Shown piece after piece: positions 1 through 8,429 of a DNA stretch of 8,429 bases (the stretch's first letter is position 1; every line of letters starts with the position of its first letter). Origin of the DNA: a virus (lineage: Duplodnaviria; Heunggongvirae; Uroviricota; Caudoviricetes). A program made the position numbers and the translations under genes. The notes under the pieces were generated by a model, which was not told the origin of the DNA, did not search any database, and was given only the letters and a program-made list of their open reading frames with translations. Location of the stretch: IMG/VR virus record IMGVR_UViG_3300029590_000173, positions 1-8,429 of that record; one strand, 5' to 3'.

Positions 1-17
1 AAGTTGGCAGCATCACC
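1..17 (-). mobile_element. Terminal 17 bp of a second IS1 copy (left inverted repeat, reverse-complemented); the body of that copy lies upstream of the window
   Basis: Bases 1-17 (AAGTTGGCAGCATCACC) are the exact reverse complement of bases 2473-2489 (GGTGATGCTGCCAACTT), the left end of the complete IS1 in this window. Only 17 bp are visible, so full versus solo end cannot be decided. Confidence 0.7.
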
Positions 18-288
18 CGAAATCACTTCATCAAGCACGTGTGTTGATGAGTACTTCAGGATCGGGTCGACGATCAAAACTGACCGGGTAATAGAACTGG
101 ATGGGGTAACTTACCCATATGTTACAATTGACGTTTCTTCTAAGTCGCATCCGTTCTATACAGGCAAACTGAGAACTGTTGCTTCAGAAGGTAATGTTGC
201 ACGCTTTACCCAGCGTTTTGGGCGTTTTGGGCGTTTTGGGCGTTTTGGGCGTTTTGGGCGTTTTGTTGATGCGAAAAAAGGCGGCTGA
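18..288 (+). CDS. rpmE2: 50S ribosomal protein L31 type B (RpmE2/YkgM-like), 3' fragment with a C-terminal (GRF)n expansion; 5' end abuts the IS1 end
   Basis: The translation ...[62 protein letters not shown]...KKGG matches my recollection of the non-zinc L31 paralog YkgM over about 65 residues. The stop is TGA at 286-288. The frame stays open back through the IS1 end to base 1, so the true start is not in the window. No rpmJ2/ykgO-like gene follows. Confidence 0.75.
214..265 (+). repeat. Perfect tandem repeat of the 9-bp unit CGTTTTGGG, 5 full copies plus a 7-bp partial copy, in frame within the L31B coding sequence
   Basis: Counted directly: units at 214-222, 223-231, 232-240, 241-249 and 250-258, then CGTTTTG at 259-265. 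The repeat encodes RFG/GRF repeats. Confidence 0.95.
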
Positions 289-589
289 TTTCGCCGCAAA
301 GGTGCGTTTGACAATTTTAAAACGGACCGGACAGAGAGAGCCTGCACCTGAATATACTGAGGTAGCCCGTCCCTCCGGGGCGTGCAGATGATCCCGTCAC
401 CAGAAGATTGCGGACCTCTCTGAAAACCAGTACATTACGCGCGGGTGCCTTTCGGCTGACGGCTGGAAGGATTACCTGAAGGCCGGATGTGGAAAGGCCC
501 CGGAAAACATCTCTGTTTAGCCGAGGCCCTAATCTACATACCTTTAGCAAGTAGAAGGTTAGCGCCTCTTTGAAAAAGGAGCAAGCGCT

Positions 590-730
590 ATGCCGCAAAA
601 AACGATCATCGTGAGCATTTTATGCTTAACCATGTTGTTGACCGTCTGGATGATACATCGTTCACCATGTGAATTCAGACTTAACATCATGTGGTCAGAA
701 TTTGCGGCGTTCTTGCAGTGTAAACCGTAA
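590..730 (+). CDS. Small hydrophobic protein (46 aa), Hok/Gef-family-like type I toxin candidate
   Basis: The ORF ATG 590 to TAA 728-730 was not in the supplied track because it is below the length cut-off. Translation: MPQKTIIVSILCLTMLLTVWMIHRSPCEFRLNIMWSEFAAFLQCKP. AGGAG at 577-581 sits 8 nt before the ATG. It has one N-terminal transmembrane segment followed by R-S-P-C-E-F-R and S-E-F-A-A-F, which resemble the Hok motifs R-K-x-L-C-E-I-R and E-V-A-A-F as I recall them. A GC-rich hairpin and an intrinsic terminator follow. Confidence 0.5.
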   Translation: MPQKTIIVSILCLTMLLTVWMIHRSPCEFRLNIMWSEFAAFLQCKP

Positions 731-1216: not shown

Positions 1217-1612
1217 TCATTTCCTGTTTCTGGTGATGTTTTGATAAAAGTGAAAGAATAAAACGATCATTGCAGAAGGTATTGCTAAAACCATACATAT
1301 CATTATATAAACAAGATGAAAATGATATATACCATAAGACCAGAAAAAAGGTTTTTTCCAGAATGATATGGATGTGTATTTTAGTGTAATTGTTTTTGTC
1401 AGGTATATTGAACAAGGAAGAGCCAGGCCACTGAGTATCAGAAATAAGTCAACTTTTATCGATGCTTCTGTTGGTGTGTCATATATAAGATGCAATATGG
1501 ATATTATAATGGGGCACATTCCCCACAGGATATTTTTGAAATAGAATTTCCGGTTCATATGTTTATGCTCTTTGGTTTTATCCCGGGAATTGGCGCTTTG
1601 TTTTTTATTCAT
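1217..1612 (-). CDS. Hypothetical multi-pass membrane protein (131 aa, about 3 predicted transmembrane helices), low-GC, second gene of a two-gene operon
   Basis: Track ORF. The start overlaps the stop of the upstream ORF by 8 nt (ATG at 1612-1610 versus stop at 1607-1605). Hydrophobic stretches include ILWGMCPIIISILHLIY, VDLFLILSGLALPCSIYL and YGIYHFHLVYIMICMVLAIPSAMIVLFF. An alternative start at the internal Met (codon 18) is possible. No family recognised. Confidence 0.55.
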   Translation of the reverse strand: MNKKQSANSRDKTKEHKHMNRKFYFKNILWGMCPIIISILHLIYDTPTEASIKVDLFLILSGLALPCSIYLTKTITLKYTSISFWKKPFFWSYGIYHFHLVYIMICMVLAIPSAMIVLFFHFYQNITRNRK

Positions 1613-2276
1613 GAACGTTTTCGTTGTTTAATAACCATGGGGTATTATGATTATCCTTTATTTTTGATATGTAATTGTCAATAGTGGATTTCGTTTCATT
1701 ATTGTGGTTATAGTAATCATGAAGAGTGCAAAACACATCATCTTTTATTGTGGCGATTAATGGGGCTTGTGTGAGGGTAAAATATAAAGAACGATTACTT
1801 AGTGTCCTGAAATAAATTTTTTCGCCAATGACCAGATCGGTGTTCATTATATTGTAGCCTATTTCAAATATATTGTTTGATGGCATGTGTAATACATATG
1901 TGGGGTATTTGTTGTGTTTTTTCATTAAATAATAAATAAAATCAGATACAGGCATCTGTTTTAGTTTTTTTTGCATCTTCCTTATGTGTTGTGACATTAA
2001 TATCATTTTCGAGAGAATGCATAAGAGACTAAACAAGAGATTAAATACTATGTTCAGTACTATCAGAGTAACAAACAGGCCAATGCTCCTTAGCGCTGAA
2101 AATATATTGTCATTGTAAATATACTGGAATGTATATCCGGCTGATAAAAATGCCAATATATATAACACTATGTCTGTTTTATTTCGCTTTTTTATTTTGT
2201 AGGTTATTGCTGATTTTAAGAATAAGATGGCAATAAGAGCAGTGATAACCCAGAAAAATATAACGGAAACTTCCAT
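1605..2276 (-). CDS. Hypothetical membrane protein (223 aa): three N-terminal transmembrane helices plus a ~130-aa Asn/Lys/Tyr-rich soluble C-terminal domain; low-GC; first gene of the operon
   Basis: Track ORF. ATG at 2276-2274 with a weak AAGG upstream. Transmembrane segments around residues 3-20, 36-54 and 65-88. GC content is about 28%, against roughly 50% in the flanking DNA. No family recognised. Confidence 0.6.
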   Translation of the reverse strand: MEVSVIFFWVITALIAILFLKSAITYKIKKRNKTDIVLYILAFLSAGYTFQYIYNDNIFSALRSIGLFVTLIVLNIVFNLLFSLLCILSKMILMSQHIRKMQKKLKQMPVSDFIYYLMKKHNKYPTYVLHMPSNNIFEIGYNIMNTDLVIGEKIYFRTLSNRSLYFTLTQAPLIATIKDDVFCTLHDYYNHNNETKSTIDNYISKIKDNHNTPWLLNNENVHE

Positions 2277-2346: not shown

Positions 2347-2527
2347 TATCTGTTTCTTATATTCTTTTTATGAAGTTACTGATTAATTTATATTAAAACA
2401 ACACATTCATAATGAAATCAACATGTTCATATGGTTGACGGCAGATTTCTCTTTTTGTTAACCTGCATCTGCGGTGATGCTGCCAACTTACTGATTTAGT
2501 GTATGATGGTGTTTTTGAGGTGCTCCA

Positions 2528-2803
2528 GTGGCTTCTGTTTCTATCAGCTGTCCCTCCTGTTCAGCTACTGACGGGGTGGTGCGTAACGGCAAAAGCACCG
2601 CCGGACATCAGCGCTATCTCTGCTCTCACTGCCGTAAAACATGGCAACTGCAGTTCACTTACACCGCTTCTCAACCCGGTACGCACCAGAAAATCATTGA
2701 TATGGCCATGAATGGCGTTGGATGCCGGGCAACCGCCCGCATTATGGGCGTTGGCCTCAACACGATTTTCCGCCATTTAAAAAACTCAGGCCGCAGTCGG
2801 TAA
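2528..2803 (+). CDS. insA: IS1 InsA protein (transposition inhibitor and N-terminal part of the InsAB' transposase)
   Basis: The 91-aa translation [43 protein letters not shown]... is the canonical InsA with its zinc-finger Cys motifs. Confidence 0.95.
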
Positions 2804-3225
2804 CCTCGCGCATACAGCCGGGCAGTGACGTCATCGTCTGCGCGGAAATGGACGAACAGTGGGGATACGTCGGGGCTAAATCGCGCCAGCGCTGGCTGTT
2901 TTACGCGTATGACAGGCTCCGGAAGACGGTTGTTGCGCACGTATTCGGTGAACGCACTATGGCGACGCTGGGGCGTCTTATGAGCCTGCTGTCACCCTTT
3001 GACGTGGTGATATGGATGACGGATGGCTGGCCGCTGTATGAATCCCGCCTGAAGGGAAAGCTGCACGTAATCAGCAAGCGATATACGCAGCGAATTGAGC
3101 GGCATAACCTGAATCTGAGGCAGCACCTGGCACGGCTGGGACGGAAGTCGCTGTCGTTCTCAAAATCGGTGGAGCTGCATGACAAAGTCATCGGGCATTA
3201 TCTGAACATAAAACACTATCAATAA
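2722..3225 (+). CDS. insB: IS1 InsB reading frame (expressed as the InsAB' transposase by a -1 frameshift at the A6C site)
   Basis: The track ORF translation ...[44 protein letters not shown]... is canonical IS1 InsB. The frameshift site lies at 2779-2785. Confidence 0.9.
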
Positions 3226-3240
3226 GTTGGAGTCATTACC

Positions 3241-3586
3241 TGAAGCGTTAATGCATGATGCAACAGAAGCGTATTGCCAGGACATCCCTGCTCCACTGAA
3301 ACGCCTTCTTCCTGACTATAAACGGATGGAAGAAAAAATAGACGCCGTAATCCGTGAGAAATACGGGTTACCTCCTGTTATGAGCACGCCAGTGAAATAT
3401 GCCGATCTCATTATGCTGGCAACCGAACGTCGCGATCTCGGGCTTGATGATGGCTCTTTCTGGCCTGTACTGGAAGGTATCCCGGCGACAGAGATGTTCA
3501 AAGTTATTCCACTGTCACCAGGCCATGCCTACGGGATGTTTATGGAACGTTTTAACGAGTTATCGGAGTTACGCAAATGCGCATGA
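3241..3586 (+). pseudogene. 3' remnant of an HD-domain phosphohydrolase-like prophage gene, decapitated by the IS1 insertion
   Basis: The reading frame runs uninterrupted from inside the IS1 right end, and the apparent start at 3227 is IS1 sequence. The remaining translation begins PEALMHDATEAYCQDIPAPLKRLLPDY..., which carries an HD-type metal-binding motif (H-D-x-x-E-x-x-x-x-D-I-P). The N-terminal half is missing. Confidence 0.5.
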
Positions 3587-3939
3587 ATGTTTTCGAAATG
3601 GAAGGGTTTCTTCGCGGGAAATGTGTACCACGAGATCTGAAAGTGAATGAAACAAATGCTGAGTACCTGGTACGTAAATTCGATGCGCTTGAAGCTAAAT
3701 GTGCGGCACTGGAAAACAAAATAATACCAGTGTCAGCTGAACTGCCGCCAGCAAATGAAAGTGTTCTGTTATTTGATGCTAACGGAGAAGGCTGGCTAAT
3801 TGGCTGGCGTTCTCTCTGGTACACCTGGGGACAAAAAGAAACCGGAGAATGGCTGTGGACATTTCAGGTCGGGGACCTTGAAAACGTCAATATCACTCAC
3901 TGGGCAGTAATGCCGAAAGCACCGAAGAATAAAAAATGA
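3577..3939 (+). CDS. Prophage protein with a C-terminal Trp-rich domain resembling DUF551
   Basis: Track ORF with GGAG 8 nt upstream; it overlaps the previous stop. The C-terminus GEGWLIGWRSLWYTWGQKETGEWLWTFQ...ITHWAVMPKAPK fits the Trp-rich phage domain I recall as DUF551 (ending THWMPLP-like). Confidence 0.5.
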   Translation: MRMNVFEMEGFLRGKCVPRDLKVNETNAEYLVRKFDALEAKCAALENKIIPVSAELPPANESVLLFDANGEGWLIGWRSLWYTWGQKETGEWLWTFQVGDLENVNITHWAVMPKAPKNKK

Positions 3940-4139
3940 GCGTGATAAAAACTCATACAGGAATTGTTATCACCCGAGACGGTCCGCAGGTAAAAAAACT
4001 GCACCAGACAAAGCGGATGTGGGTCGTCGGAAAAAACGAGTTTTACCACAAAGAAACCGGACGCCGCCACTTTGCAGAAAATACTCGCCGCCGACTGCTG
4101 ATCGATACCATCAAGCCTATCGAGGTGAAGCATGTTTAA
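3936..4139 (+). CDS. Hypothetical prophage protein (67 aa)
   Basis: Track ORF. Its ATG overlaps the upstream stop (ATGA), typical of translationally coupled phage operons. No family recognised. Confidence 0.4.
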   Translation: MSVIKTHTGIVITRDGPQVKKLHQTKRMWVVGKNEFYHKETGRRHFAENTRRRLLIDTIKPIEVKHV

Positions 4140-4371
4140 ACAGAACGAAAAATCTATCGCTCAAATTGCTGAGTATATCCCGCGTGCGTGCCGGGATATG
4201 CAGTTGCAGGAAGCCAAAGCACGCCTGGAGAAAAAAATTGCGCTCTATATCGATGACGGCTGTGATGCCGCCGTTCTTAACGCGGCGTTCGCGCCAGCTC
4301 TTAACAGTCATACGCGAAAGTCTTTTTTTTCGTGCATCGCAGCGCAGATCCGTAAAGGAGGCAACCAGTGA
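4132..4371 (+). CDS. Hypothetical prophage protein (79 aa)
   Basis: Track ORF. Its start overlaps the upstream stop (ATGTTTAA) and its stop overlaps the next gene's GTG start. No family recognised. Confidence 0.4.
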   Translation: MFKQNEKSIAQIAEYIPRACRDMQLQEAKARLEKKIALYIDDGCDAAVLNAAFAPALNSHTRKSFFSCIAAQIRKGGNQ

Positions 4372-4967
4372 GCAACATTAACTATCAGGTACTGCGTGAA
4401 AAGGCAGAGAAAGCAACTAAAGGAAGCTACATCGTAGGGCATACATCTGTTAACCAACACGGCAATTTAACAGGAGTTTTTGTTTGTCAAAAATGGAAAG
4501 GAGAACCCGGTGGCGTAATTGCAGAATGTCACGTTAACTGCCTGGTTGAAACAGATGCTCAGGCTTATGCAAACGCTGAATTCATAGCAGAGGCTAACCC
4601 GGCTACCGTGCTGGCACTGCTGGATGAACAGGAAAGAAACCAGCAATACATCAAACGCCGCGACCAGGAGAACGAGGATATTGCGCTAACGGTAGGGAAG
4701 CTGCGCGTTGAGCTTGAGGAGACAAAATCAAAACTCAACGAGCAGCGCGAGTATTACGAGGGAGTTATCTCTGATGGGTGCAAGCGTATTGCTGAACTGG
4801 AAGCGCGGGAAGTTCAATTACCGACTCGCTACGACCTTCGATATGGACACCCGATAAATGCAGATGAGCGACAAGTCATGATACCTAAAGAAAATGGCAG
4901 TTGGCTTTACCTGATTGACCTAGAACACGCATTACGCGTCGCTGACATTCGCATCAAAGGAGAGTGA
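4368..4967 (+). CDS. Ead/Ea22-like prophage accessory protein (199 aa)
   Basis: GTG start with a strong AAGGAGG 6 nt upstream. The N-terminus MSNINYQVLREKAEKATKG... and the central coiled-coil region match my recollection of lambdoid Ead/Ea22-like proteins encoded between int/xis and the recombination genes. Confidence 0.55.
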   Translation: MSNINYQVLREKAEKATKGSYIVGHTSVNQHGNLTGVFVCQKWKGEPGGVIAECHVNCLVETDAQAYANAEFIAEANPATVLALLDEQERNQQYIKRRDQENEDIALTVGKLRVELEETKSKLNEQREYYEGVISDGCKRIAELEAREVQLPTRYDLRYGHPINADERQVMIPKENGSWLYLIDLEHALRVADIRIKGE

Positions 4968-4968
4968 T

Positions 4969-5484
4969 ATGGCGTTAACACACCACGAACTCTGTCAGAT
5001 TGCGTACAAGTTCCTTAAGCGCAACGGGTTCAAGGTTTGCTTTCATGACCGCTTTGTTGCTGTAACCAGTACCGGAGAACAGCCAGATGCTATGGGATTC
5101 AGAAATTCAGCATCATGCCTGATAGAGGCGAAGTGTTCTCGTGCTGACTTGTTGGCAGATAGAAAAAAGCGTTTCCGTAAAAATCCCTCACTTGGCATGG
5201 GCGACTGGCGATTCTTTATTAGTGAGCCGGAAATTATTTCAGTTGAGGATTTACCTCCCGGCTGGGGATTACTTCACGTTGTTAACGGAAGAGTACGGAA
5301 AGTACATGGATGGCCCAGGGGTAATTGCTGTTGGGGTAATCCTGACGATAAGCCATTTACTGGGAATAAGCAGGTTGAATGCGATTACATGTTATCTGCA
5401 TTAAGGCGCATGGAGTTGAGAGGGCACCTTAATGAAATATATGACGGTGTGATTGTTAATAAGAAAGAAGGAAACGCGGCATGA
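4969..5484 (+). CDS. Hypothetical prophage protein (171 aa); possible PD-(D/E)xK nuclease fold
   Basis: AGGAG 6 nt upstream; starts 1 nt after the Ea22-like stop. The sequence contains ...GEQPDAMGF...CLIEAKCSRADL..., which is compatible with a PD-x(n)-E-x-K catalytic motif. This is a motif-level inference only. Confidence 0.35.
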   Translation: MALTHHELCQIAYKFLKRNGFKVCFHDRFVAVTSTGEQPDAMGFRNSASCLIEAKCSRADLLADRKKRFRKNPSLGMGDWRFFISEPEIISVEDLPPGWGLLHVVNGRVRKVHGWPRGNCCWGNPDDKPFTGNKQVECDYMLSALRRMELRGHLNEIYDGVIVNKKEGNAA

Positions 5485-6239
5485 TCACTATTACCAAAGG
5501 GCGACTGCTGACAATCAAGCAGTGGCGCGAAACATACGGACCGGGTAGCAACGTTGTACTGCCAGCAGAAGAAGCGGAAGAACTGGCACGAATTGCTCTG
5601 GTATCGCTGGAAGCAGAGCCGGTGGCAAAGATTATAGCTCATTACCCATTAGGAGTTGACGTAGGCAAACAAAAGTTCGTACAGGCCATTGGAGAGCTTC
5701 CTGACTTTGGCGGATATCTATTTGCCGCCCCGCCAGCGCCGGTAGTGCCGGAAGAAGCAACTCCGGAAAACGTAGAAATGCTCTCTGGCTATGTTTCCAC
5801 GTACAAATTAACCGATAGCGAGCGCGATATTGCTGCCGAAATATGGAACGCCTGCCGCACCGCCATGCTTCAGTCCGGAAACTTTCGGGAAAGCAAGAAT
5901 TCGTCAACCAATAATTTTCGGGAAATCCCGGAAGCGTCAACCAGCTCTCCGGTAACTCCGGCTCTTCTGCCTGGTGGTTTCACCATTGAGGAGGCGAAGG
6001 AATTACATGAAGACCTGGTACGCAGCCACATAAGCAAGGCCTTAAGTGGCGAAAAGATGAAAAAGAAAGATCGCGATGCTGATTTGCGCTGGATTCATGG
6101 CGTTATAGTTCAGGCAGCGTGGTTTGTAAAAGCATCACTGGAGCAGAATGCACTATCGGGCAACTCTCCGGTAACTCCGGATGGTTGGATAAGCTGTAGT
6201 GAGCGAATGCCGGACGACAGGCAGGAGGTGAATCAATGA
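5481..6239 (+). CDS. Hypothetical prophage protein (252 aa) with internal short repeats and a C-terminus that looks like the start of a DUF551-type domain
   Basis: ATG overlaps the upstream stop (ATGA) with GAAGGA upstream. It contains exact 17-bp direct repeats at 5945-5961 and 6164-6180 (encoding SPVTP) and ends ...SPVTPDGWISCSERMPDD before the stop at 6237-6239. Confidence 0.5.
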   Translation: MITITKGRLLTIKQWRETYGPGSNVVLPAEEAEELARIALVSLEAEPVAKIIAHYPLGVDVGKQKFVQAIGELPDFGGYLFAAPPAPVVPEEATPENVEMLSGYVSTYKLTDSERDIAAEIWNACRTAMLQSGNFRESKNSSTNNFREIPEASTSSPVTPALLPGGFTIEEAKELHEDLVRSHISKALSGEKMKKKDRDADLRWIHGVIVQAAWFVKASLEQNALSGNSPVTPDGWISCSERMPDDRQEVNQ

Positions 6240-6319
6240 GCTGGCCTGATGCAATCGTAACTCTGGGGGTGGTATTCGCAGCAGCGTTTGTTGTGTTCTC
6301 GATTTGTCGATGGGGATAA
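6236..6319 (+). CDS. Small single-transmembrane peptide (27 aa, MSWPDAIVTLGVVFAAAFVVFSICRWG); candidate host-targeting small membrane peptide
   Basis: Not in the track because it is short. AGGAGG at 6222-6227 sits 8 nt before ATG 6236. The ATG overlaps the upstream stop (ATGA), and the stop TAA at 6317-6319 lies 4 nt before the next ATG (6324). Confidence 0.4.
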   Translation: MSWPDAIVTLGVVFAAAFVVFSICRWG

Positions 6320-6323
6320 CCAC

Positions 6324-6566
6324 ATGTTCGCTTTGATTCAACGCGGTCAGATATACACGGACAGAGCCGGATACCCCGTGGTGATTACTCGCATCACTGA
6401 GCACTCAGTGTTCTTTCGACGGGTGGACGGACGATCCGGGCGGGTACGCATTGGTGAGTTAAACTGCCTGTTCGAACATATTGACCACCAGGAGTACCGC
6501 AAAATTCTCGCGGACACTGAGCAGGAAAAGCACCTGAAAAAATTACGAGCCATAAAAAGGAAGTAA
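6324..6566 (+). CDS. Hypothetical prophage protein (81 aa from ATG 6324; the track's TTG start at 6288 is less likely)
   Basis: Track ORF 6288..6566. The ATG at 6324 follows the small-peptide stop by 4 nt. Translation: MFALIQRGQIYTDRAGYPVVITRITEHSVFFRRVDGRSGRVRIGELNCLFEHIDHQEYRK... No family assigned with confidence. Confidence 0.45.
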   Translation: MFALIQRGQIYTDRAGYPVVITRITEHSVFFRRVDGRSGRVRIGELNCLFEHIDHQEYRKILADTEQEKHLKKLRAIKRK

Positions 6567-6569
6567 AGA

Positions 6570-6704
6570 ATGAATAAAGCATTTGAACGATGGGTCCACC
6601 AGCGTTACGGCAATCACTATGACCTGACGCGAGATGTTGATGGCTTCTACTGTCGTGAAGTTGTGAAGCGAATGTTTGAAATGTGGTGCCACTGCCGTGG
6701 ATGA
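6570..6704 (+). CDS. Small Cys/His-containing protein (44 aa, MNKAFERWVHQRYGNHYDLTRDVDGFYCREVVKRMFEMWCHCRG)
   Basis: Not in the track because it is short. AAGGAAG lies about 7 nt upstream, and the ATG is 4 nt after the previous stop. C-x(13)-C-H-C could be a metal-binding knuckle. Weak call. Confidence 0.3.
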   Translation: MNKAFERWVHQRYGNHYDLTRDVDGFYCREVVKRMFEMWCHCRG

Positions 6705-6722
6705 AAGTTTTATGAGGTTGGC

Positions 6723-6977
6723 ATGCAGACAATCATCTATCAGATAACCCCCAGCAAATGGTGTACGGAGAGAGTCCTTATTGCATCAACAGGGCTAAAG
6801 CCCGGCACCATCGAGCGGGCCAGAAGAAAGTCATGGATGCAGGGAAAAGAATACCGCCATTACGCTGTAGAAGGTGATCCTGGGCATTACAGTGAATGCC
6901 TGTACAACATCGAAGAAATTATGCGATGGATCGAAAACCAGAAACAACCAGGTGCCAAAAATGCAAGTTCCGGTTAA
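6723..6977 (+). CDS. xis: Excisionase-like (Xis) protein, 84 aa
   Basis: It sits immediately upstream of int and is co-oriented with it, the canonical xis position. The N-terminus MQTIIYQITPSKWCTERV... resembles the putative-excisionase family of enterobacterial prophages as I recall it. Confidence 0.5.
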   Translation: MQTIIYQITPSKWCTERVLIASTGLKPGTIERARRKSWMQGKEYRHYAVEGDPGHYSECLYNIEEIMRWIENQKQPGAKNASSG

Positions 6978-7010
6978 CCTGTTAATGCTCCTGGACGTCT
7001 GGGAGGTTTA

Positions 7011-8315
7011 ATGAGTAACGTATCATACCCGACAGGCGTTGAAAACCATGGAGGATCACTCCGTATATGGTTTCACTATAATGGCAAACGTGTCAGAGAA
7101 AACCTCGGTGTTCCTGACACCGCCAAAAACCGGAAGATCGCAGGTGAACTTCGCACTTCCGTTTGTTTTGCAATCAGAATGGGGAGTTTCGACTACGCTA
7201 CACAGTTCCCTAATTCCCCTAACCTGAAACACTTTGGTCTGGGAAAAAGAGAGATAACCGTTAAGGCACTTTCGGAAAAATGGTTGGACCTTAAGAAAAT
7301 TGAGATTTGTGCGAATGCACTTAATCGTTACCAGTCAGTAATTAAAAACATGTTGCCTATGTTGGGTGAGAAAAAACTGGTTTCATCCATAACAAAAGAG
7401 GATTTACTTTTCGCAAGGAGAGATTTGTTGACCGGTTACCAAAAGCTTTCTAATGGAAAGATTTCTTCCATAAAAGGGCGCTCAGTGGTCACAGTAAACT
7501 ACTATATGACAACCATAGCTGGAATGTTTCAATTTGCAACAGATAATGGTTATACCTCAGGAAACCCATTTAACGGTCTGGCCCCCTTAAAAAAGTCCAA
7601 GGTAAAACCAGATCCTCTCACCCGTGACGAATTTATTCGTTTTATTGAGGCTTGCCGTCATCAACAAACAAAAAACCTGTGGATTCTCGCTGTATACACG
7701 GGTATTCGTCACGGGGAGCTGGTATCGCTGGCATGGGAAGATATAGATCTTAAAGCAAGGACTATAACCATCCGTAGGAATTATACAAAACTTGGCGAAT
7801 TCACTCCACCAAAAACCGATGCTGGCACCGGAAGGACAATTCATCTGGTTCAACCAGCTATTGATGCTCTTAAAAGTCAGGCGGAAATGACCATGCTTGG
7901 AAAGCAACATTCTGTAGAGGTAAAGCAGAGGGAATATGGGAGAAGNNNNNNNNNNNNNNNNNNNNNNNNNNNNNNNNNCACTTTTGTTTTTAGTCCTCAG
8001 GTAATAAAACAGCGGCAGTTTTCCGGACCGCACTATAAGGTTGACTCCATCAGGGAGTCATGGACAAGTATCTTAAAACGCGCAGGTCTGAGACACAGAA
8101 AATCGTACCAATCCAGGCATACTTATGCATGCTGGTCACTTGCCGCTGGAGCTAATCCTAGTTTTATCGCAAGCCAGATGGGCCACACAAACGCACAAAT
8201 GGTATTCAATGTTTACGGAGCATGGATGAAAGACAACAATCACGAACAGATAGAACTCCTTAACAAAAGACTATCTGAAAGTGTCCCATGTATGCCCCAT
8301 AAGAAAGCTGGGTAA
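7011..8315 (+). CDS. int: Phage integrase, tyrosine site-specific recombinase (lambda Int family); the reading frame spans a 33-N gap
   Basis: GGGAGG Shine-Dalgarno before ATG 7011. The C-terminal catalytic region carries ...LAVYTGIRHGELVSLAWEDIDL... (Arg box) and ...HTYACWSLAAGANPSFIASQMGHTNAQMVFNVYGAWM... (H-x-x-R ... Y motifs). Ns at 7946-7978 fall inside the gene. Confidence 0.9.
   Translation: MSNVSYPTGVENHGGSLRIWFHYNGKRVRENLGVPDTAKNRKIAGELRTSVCFAIRMGSFDYATQFPNSPNLKHFGLGKREITVKALSEKWLDLKKIEICANALNRYQSVIKNMLPMLGEKKLVSSITKEDLLFARRDLLTGYQKLSNGKISSIKGRSVVTVNYYMTTIAGMFQFATDNGYTSGNPFNGLAPLKKSKVKPDPLTRDEFIRFIEACRHQQTKNLWILAVYTGIRHGELVSLAWEDIDLKARTITIRRNYTKLGEFTPPKTDAGTGRTIHLVQPAIDALKSQAEMTMLGKQHSVEVKQREYGRXXXXXXXXXXXXTFVFSPQVIKQRQFSGPHYKVDSIRESWTSILKRAGLRHRKSYQSRHTYACWSLAAGANPSFIASQMGHTNAQMVFNVYGAWMKDNNHEQIELLNKRLSESVPCMPHKKAG
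7946..7978. other. Run of 33 N (assembly gap or masked bases) inside the integrase gene
   Basis: Seen directly. Because 33 is a multiple of 3 the frame appears preserved, but the true length and content are unknown. Confidence 0.99.
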
Positions 8316-8360
8316 AATAAAAACTTGCAAAATCAATTAGTTTACCCTTAATCCCTGTCA
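8316..8360. other. Prophage-chromosome junction (attL-type) region between the integrase stop and the resumption of mlrA-like sequence
   Basis: Position immediately 3' of int, and the point where the downstream frame begins to read as MlrA (about 8354). The exact core cannot be defined without the other junction. Confidence 0.35.
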
Positions 8361-8429
8361 CGTTACGCGCGTGGCAGAGGCGTTACGGATTGCTGAAACC
8401 GCAACGGACAGACGGCGGTCATCGGCTGT
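8354..8429 (+). pseudogene. mlrA: Fragment of the MerR-family curli regulator gene mlrA (yehV), helix-turn-helix region; its 5' end is replaced by prophage sequence and it runs off the window
   Basis: The in-frame translation [25 protein letters not shown] matches the MlrA N-terminal HTH region as I remember it ([42 protein letters not shown]...). The upstream in-frame codons ([11 protein letters not shown]) do not match and contain no start codon back to the stop at 8318-8320. Confidence 0.6.

Follow-up and report, generated by a model that had tools for sequence, protein, structure and literature searches.

Variable-number tandem repeats (VNTRs) are used in bacteria for strain typing as MLVA loci, with replication slippage as their accepted mechanism, and in short tandem repeats slippage becomes likelier as the perfect tract lengthens. 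The closest described relative of the gene reported here is ykgM of Escherichia coli K-12, which encodes a type B ribosomal protein L31 (bL31B, L31p) in the Zur-repressed ykgM-ykgO operon. A palindrome resembling a Zur box lies immediately upstream of the start of this gene, which is followed by ykgO and has two RF units and a C-terminal RFTQRFGRF motif that arises from the short direct repeat CGTTTTGGT-CGTTTTG. L31 is anchored in the 50S subunit's central protuberance and reaches the head of the 30S subunit (PMC7363858). In E. coli L31p, Met1, Lys2 and His6 contact 5S rRNA; the protein also represses the synthesis of the main L31, a function that is abolished in L31p without residues 2-8 and is unimpaired by deletion of C-terminal residues (PMC9825181).

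The stretch of DNA analysed here (the window; 8,429 nucleotides of a Caudoviricetes record, IMGVR_UViG_3300029590_000173) begins with a gene of the same family, which, by homology, is an extra L31B copy of mobile-element origin and not chromosomal ykgM. In protein, it is ~95% identical to K-12 YkgM over residues 20-78, and its C-terminal tail is encoded by a similar short direct repeat, whereas the DNA of ykgM is only 81% identical (214/264) to the intact allele of this extra copy (hereafter the intact island allele). Codons 1-19, the partner gene and the upstream region of ykgM have no counterpart in the window copy.

The repeat array and the truncated gene

Tandem Repeats Finder (TRF) identified a single strong array in the window (Table 1), with a period of 9, 5.9 copies, 100% matches, no indels and a score of 106. 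In the register of positions 214-265, it consists of five copies of CGTTTTGGG followed by CGTTTTG, and it is in frame with the L31-related ORF (214 - 4 = 210, a multiple of three). An earlier, sequence-only reading had described five perfect 9-bp copies plus a partial one inside a coding sequence whose frame is kept, and both the TRF result and the ORF bear this out. The array encodes six RF units, the count that is used as copy number (n) throughout, versus two in intact alleles. The same reading gave the canonical protein a single RFGRF, and this holds true of both K-12 YkgM and the intact island allele. Forty-four consecutive bases are each identical to the base 9 positions upstream, an outcome expected by chance in 8.4 kb at about 8429 x 4^-44; a chance origin of a perfect array of such length is far too unlikely. 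The repeat lies outside any known RNA gene, because none was found there by a whole-window Rfam search at gathering thresholds or by a tRNA scan. Two further interpretations of the array were rejected. A minus-strand ORF at 156-347, which reads across it as (KRP)n, is an automatic by-product of the repeat without supporting evidence. A role as an iteron or protein-binding site is at odds with the parent allele, which has only the two-unit coding repeat, with the 9-bp period, which does not fit the helical repeat, and with the absence of a replication or regulatory context nearby.

Table 1. Features of the window (positions in nucleotides; position 1 is the first base of the window)
Feature	Position	Strand	Remarks
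IS1 terminal 17 nt (left inverted repeat)	1..17	-	IS1 copy to the left; abuts and further truncates the L31B remnant
L31-related ORF	4..288	+	Pfam PF01197 (Ribosomal_L31), 58 bits, profile positions 16-65 of 65
Non-L31 leader replacing codons 1-19	18..43	+	Origin in integrative conjugative element (ICE) backbone; breakpoint ~37-44
L31B-homologous remainder	44..288	+	Intact codons 20-87 plus expansion; TGA stop at 286-288; PF01197, NF002462
9-bp tandem array	213..265	+	TRF; (CGTTTTGGG)5 + CGTTTTG
sok-like RNA region	443..600	+	Rfam RF01794, 47.7 bits (gathering score, 59), E = 2.3e-9, entire model covered
hok/gef-family toxin gene	590..730	+	Pfam HOK_GEF, 27.8 bits; 'Hok/Gef family protein' in RefSeq in all related loci
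Two overlapping ORFs (131 and 223 aa)	1217..2276	-	No Pfam match; translations look hydrophobic
Complete IS1	2473..3240	+	Exact 23-nt inverted repeat at 2473; InsA and IS1 transposase (Pfam)
Integrase end of lambdoid prophage	3241..8429
Tyrosine-integrase gene	7011..8315		Contains a run of 33 N at 7946-7978

Allele alignment places the start of homology with the intact allele at TTGATGAG, i.e. at window position 44, which corresponds to codon 19-20 of the intact gene. The leader in front of it yields a Smith-Waterman score of 13 against the intact 5' end versus a shuffle mean of 12.8, which is no significant similarity. The possibility that the odd 5' end is a degraded L31B start was rejected because this local alignment score equals the shuffle mean, and the gene start was thus replaced and not eroded. 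In the 13 complete genomes that carry the truncated allele, the remnant lies 3' of ICE backbone sequence. Over the gene body, the window allele and the intact allele on metagenome contig L018 are identical.

With the NCBIfam profile for type-B L31 (NF002462), the window ORF scores 82.5 bits (cut-off, 86) over profile positions 18-79 of 80, versus 121.6 bits over positions 1-79 for the intact island allele. A full-length profile match above the cut-off is therefore lacking, as is the N-terminal segment with Met1, Lys2 and His6, which belonged to the replaced codons 1-19. The ORF does keep the type-B core, with the intact allele's sequence unchanged, and the C-terminal RFxxRFGxF motif, with the RFG unit multiplied. 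As judged from these matches, the ORF is of the L31 type B lineage by descent, yet it falls outside the family in length and N-terminus. It does pass the generic TIGR00105 profile (49.9 bits versus a cut-off of 38.35), and this pass despite the type-B failure is the likely reason why RefSeq names the truncated remnant 'rpmE, 50S ribosomal protein L31' (L001, 8984-9271; L002, 2984-3253; L012, 1484-1744; and L013, 1484-1762). This name is a warning for annotation, as it is probably an error that is spreading through databases.

No plus-strand promoter-like site was found within positions 1-1000 of the window, although the upstream sequence of the ORF comprises just 17 nt of IS1. Since the N-terminal residues of L31p are needed for its contacts and repressor function and L31 has an anchoring role in the ribosome, a product without residues 1-19 is very unlikely to act as a working L31B. 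Further decay is seen in relatives, with a frameshift inside the array in one (P0134) and an R-to-C change in another (P0131). The gene had been called a fragment from the sequence alone, and the replacement of ~19 codons, the adjoining IS1 end and the score below the type-B cut-off agree with this. Two options had been left open for it, decay of a pseudogene or tuning of a ribosomal paralog; the truncation, the IS1 abutment, the sub-cut-off score and the lost N-terminal residues favour decay.

Mobile-element context of the L31B copy

The region was found by megablast in 1089 of 5426 complete E. coli genomes, and 588 complete genomes have one match covering at least 80% of a 900-nt query, with an annotated L31 gene followed by a Hok/Gef gene. 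An intact extra L31B with hok/sok is present in about 580 of the 5426 genomes (~11%, about one in nine), and the hosts of this intact copy include many Shiga-toxin-producing serogroups. The annotated neighbourhoods of the L31B copies are mobile elements: the neighbours in strains S19-651 and JE86-ST05, which carry the truncated allele with six and four units, respectively, are related to conjugative transfer (TraG, ICE proteins, ArdC, and integrase-domain proteins), and those in strain 2015C-3121 are traT and type I restriction-modification genes. The intact island L31B is a protein of 87 aa with a GTG start, a full N-terminus and a single RFGRF (RefSeq WP_000803992.1), and island copies are named bL31B-2 or bL31B-3 in UniProt/UniRef. 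In a plasmid collection, the cassette is rare, and the spans of its three near-full-length matches there agree with the two-unit intact form. A literature search found no papers on a repeat in ykgM or in the island copies, or on L31 together with a genomic island and hok.

The L36 gene is never located 3' of the island copy. The lack of the partner rpmJ2 had been taken as a possible sign of decay; the absence itself is real, but it is no such sign, because even the intact island form never has rpmJ2. It had also been proposed that an intact paralogous rpmE2-rpmJ2 locus be sought elsewhere, and the native ykgM-ykgO locus is separately present in 5061 of the 5426 complete E. coli genomes (93%). 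The window does not contain a Zur-box ykgO operon: hok lies downstream instead of L36, and the upstream region is replaced by IS1. Against a Zur-box consensus, the upstream region of the intact island allele gives a weak match (14/23) versus 17/23 for K-12. The hok gene is always next downstream of the island L31B copy, and the hok/sok module lies ~300 nt 3' of it (L31B and hok together at 18-900 of the window and at 2949-3654 of L003). In the window, the sok-like match is located just upstream of the hok start and overlaps it, an arrangement consistent with a divergent type I toxin-antitoxin module of the hok/sok kind.

Window positions 1-17, when reverse-complemented, exactly reproduce the opening 17 nt of the complete IS1 located further downstream, and window base 18 is where every E. 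coli match to the remnant starts. E. coli prophage matches begin exactly at 3241, and the right-hand IS1 connects the 18-2472 fragment with a lambdoid prophage at the latter's integrase end. The window is a gapped draft scaffold, as seen from the N run in the integrase gene, and, the window being a scaffold, this join could be a scaffolding decision. The 2.45-kb segment at 18-2472, which comprises the L31B remnant, hok and two unknown ORFs, is located between two inverted IS1 ends whose left inverted repeats face it, and it occurs as separate ~2.7 kb contigs in related draft assemblies. It could be a composite-transposon-like unit or the leftover of an IS1-mediated ICE deletion. The longer of the two unknown ORFs (223 aa) corresponds in length and position to a 672-nt 'hypothetical protein' gene of ICE-bearing genomes.

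Copy number in truncated and intact alleles

A slippage-prone repeat should vary in copy number, and the truncated allele, present in 13 of the 5426 complete E. coli genomes, contains 3, 4, 5 or 6 units (Table 2; counts are from match length, with one genome per copy number verified by sequence). The comparison across isolates that had been suggested for this locus was thus run, and an identical number everywhere was not what it returned. In the four genomes that were read (n = 3, 4, 5, and 6), 825 nt of flanking sequence (195 left and 630 right) show zero differences; the window flanks show two differences from these genomes. Because the flanks are identical across n = 3-6, the array appears to change much faster than point mutations accumulate.

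Table 2. Number of RF units (n) in truncated and intact alleles
Genome or contig	Allele	n	Match length	Sequence read
Window	Truncated, IS1-cut	6
H1-H4 (complete genomes)	Truncated	6	883 nt	L001
H8	Truncated	5	874 nt	L013
H9-H13	Truncated	4	865 nt	L002
H5-H7	Truncated	3	856 nt	L012
L003, L014	Intact	2		Both

More truncated alleles were identified by exact-sequence look-up in a collection of ~15 billion proteins, in which contig counts do not represent independent isolates: n = 2 on 69 + 15 contigs, n = 3 on 120 + 30 + 7 + 4 + 3 contigs, and n = 4 on 164 + 48 + 1 contigs. Contigs of ~2.7 kb carry the window-type IS1-junction form (beginning MAASPEIT) with three units (P0129 and P0130). Truncated alleles of three and four units also came from a metagenome scan, as did one contig (L020) with n = 5, which begins too near the array for its 5' end to show. 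The window's own ORF with 2, 4, 5 or 6 units, MISISNE-start forms with 5, 6 or 7 units and MPATLAY-start forms with 5 or 6 units are absent from the ~15-billion protein collection. Such absence proves nothing, because RefSeq complete genomes carry five and six units and the collection does not contain these forms.

Intact alleles were searched for with two queries against complete E. coli genomes. With a synthetic intact six-unit query, intact genes matched only to the second unit (query positions 1-241), and no intact allele ranked above the two-unit ones, in a listing in which two six-unit genomes expected near the top were absent and the ranking is not fully understood. With a four-unit intact query (L018), 576 genomes gave coverage of at least 80%; the best 30 matches listed have spans of 485 nt out of the 503-nt query, and none longer ranked above them. 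The ~576 intact island alleles in complete genomes appear all to carry two units, as judged from match ranking and the matches listed and not from genome-by-genome reading. Native K-12 YkgM with three or four units is absent among the ~15 billion proteins, in which at least 1000 contigs have the two-unit form. No more than two RF units are seen in any of the 120 L31B cluster representatives listed, and the [RK]FxxRFGxF motif is conserved in them as a single copy. A scan of species-representative genomes yielded no other L31B expansion to three or more units; it returned a kef pseudogene of Serratia symbiotica (described below) and seven short arrays whose surrounding frames are unlike L31. Small in-frame duplications of another kind are evidently also carried by L31B genes: two E. 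coli L31B proteins of 92 aa, P0027 (on 23 contigs) and P0028 (on one), have a 5-residue in-frame tandem duplication in the type-B core and are otherwise intact.

Expanded intact island proteins do exist, with n = 3 on two contigs and n = 4 on three contigs; ELR5928325.1 is one of these expanded proteins. Metagenome contig L018 carries an intact allele with n = 4 and a normal upstream region and start. Its gene body and ~120 nt downstream are identical to the truncated lineage, and the truncated allele therefore seems to descend from an L018-like parent. The first expansion may have occurred before the truncation; the truncated two-unit alleles (84 contigs) fit the opposite order or a later contraction. 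Among the alleles collected here, expansion is concentrated in the dead allele but also occurs outside it, and gene death is not strictly required, since intact three- and four-unit alleles exist.

Origin of the expansion and comparison with known systems

The array is very probably a slippage-driven variable-number repeat in a decaying mobile L31B remnant, i.e. an ordinary length polymorphism without a ribosomal role. The parent sequence, CGTTTTGGG-CGTTTTG, is a direct repeat of 7-8 nt at 9-nt spacing, and it encodes the conserved RFGRF tail. Strand slippage on this short direct repeat during replication would add a unit. Gone from the extra L31B copy are the promoter region, the ribosome-binding site and the first ~19 codons, with the IS1 cut on top of this in the window genome. 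The remnant, presumably no longer expressed and unable to make a working L31B, would then undergo length changes unopposed by selection. Each added unit would lengthen the perfect tract and make slippage easier, as in short tandem repeats generally, and copy number (2 to 6 seen) would drift, probably neutrally, much faster than point mutations. In functional L31B, the tail may be held at two units by selection or by a low rate of the first step. The conservation of the reading frame is uninformative on selection, because the unit is 9 bp.

An account that we regard as unlikely invokes mutational momentum alone: a rare first expansion from two to three units would have taken place in an intact, functional L31B of the L018 type, after which the longer arrays would slip far more easily. 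A working protein would tolerate the expanded tail, the truncation, in a single descendant, would be a later and incidental event, and relaxed selection would be unneeded. The existence of three- and four-unit intact proteins, the sequence that the four-unit L018 allele shares with the truncated lineage, and the finding that stable and unstable lineages do not differ in the sequence surrounding the array are in line with it. So are the unimpaired repressor function of L31p after C-terminal deletion (PMC9825181) and the E. coli L31B chain in PDB 6i7v, which stops at residue 68, the tail not being represented in the entry. Against it, intact expanded alleles are very rare (5 contigs versus at least 1000, with none found among the ~576 complete genomes), the longest arrays with a readable 5' end (five and six units) are on truncated alleles, and the truncated two-unit alleles also fit truncation before expansion. 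An assembly artefact, in which the six copies would come from a mis-assembled repeat, is scarcely credible: although the window is a draft scaffold that starts inside an IS1 end and contains a gap of 33 N, the 52-bp array is shorter than typical sequencing reads, and the same six-unit array and flanks are present in four complete genomes from different laboratories, with other counts in further ones.

That the variation is adaptive appears highly improbable. Here, the remnant or its parent would be expressed, and the repeat number would set the length of a basic aromatic tail acting at the subunit bridge, in rpmE mRNA repression or in a new RNA-binding role, much like a contingency locus on a mobile element. 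The bridge that L31 forms from the 50S central protuberance to the head of the 30S subunit (PMC7363858) and the extraribosomal regulatory role of L31p (PMC9825181) speak for it, and the ORF is open in nearly all alleles and annotated as a CDS. However, any gain or loss of a 9-bp unit leaves the frame unchanged, the product lacks the N-terminal residues on which 5S rRNA contact and repression depend, the native promoter and start region is gone with 17 nt of IS1 running into the residual ORF, frameshifted and partial variants exist, and the expansion occurs in no functional L31B among the 120 listed family representatives. The locus does not resemble a contingency locus, because a unit of 9 bp is divisible by three and cannot turn the frame on and off, and because the gene is a promoterless remnant: the repeat of such a locus would be expected in a functional gene that is expressed, or in its promoter, and the allele is truncated, abutted by IS1, below the profile cut-off and apparently without a plus-strand promoter-like site. 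A yet more far-fetched variant holds that mobile island L31B, including the rare intact three- and four-unit alleles, is a length-variable ribosomal-protein or L31-regulator module. If so, slippage in the RFG tract would alter the reach of the tail at the subunit bridge or the binding of rpmE mRNA, strains carrying the element would gain heritable heterogeneity of translation, and the six-unit window allele would be a dead descendant.

Under the preferred explanation, slippage in a decaying remnant, the locus says little about ribosome biology, since the tail that expanded belongs to a gene fragment unable to make a working L31B. It offers a clean case from nature in which a coding repeat conserved at two units (RFGRF) has become a fast-evolving array, mainly in a copy that has very likely lost its constraint, and a possible high-resolution marker for tracking the integrative element among E. 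coli isolates. The presence of an intact extra L31B beside hok on mobile islands poses a more interesting question than the repeat itself: since L31p represses the synthesis of the main L31 (PMC9825181), a mobile intact copy might disturb the L31 balance of its host.

Among known systems, the intact island L31B is the direct parent type. It has the gene body, the downstream hok/sok and the absence of rpmJ2 in common with the window, whereas the window allele is 5'-truncated, bounded by IS1 and expanded to six units. With bacterial VNTRs of the MLVA type, the locus shares perfect short head-to-tail units and whole-unit polymorphism among otherwise identical sequences, the differences lying on identical flanks. 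Unlike MLVA loci, it is located on a mobile element, and the truncated allele is confined to a small minority of strains (13/5426); a literature search found no description of it as a typing marker. A parallel is provided by S. symbiotica (L004; JAMDYG010000001.1, 2878-2923), in which a kefB/kefC-like K+ efflux gene has an expansion to 5.1 copies of the identical unit CGTTTTGGG where its dinucleotide-binding motif, GFGRFG, is encoded. Stop codons on both sides of this frame make it an apparent pseudogene, in a genome-reducing symbiont. This case, a single observation, differs in that both the gene and the organism are unrelated; by analogy, and being independent of L31B, it supports an intrinsic instability of the unit. 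The window locus is a fresh example of a well-known type of feature, the slippage VNTR.
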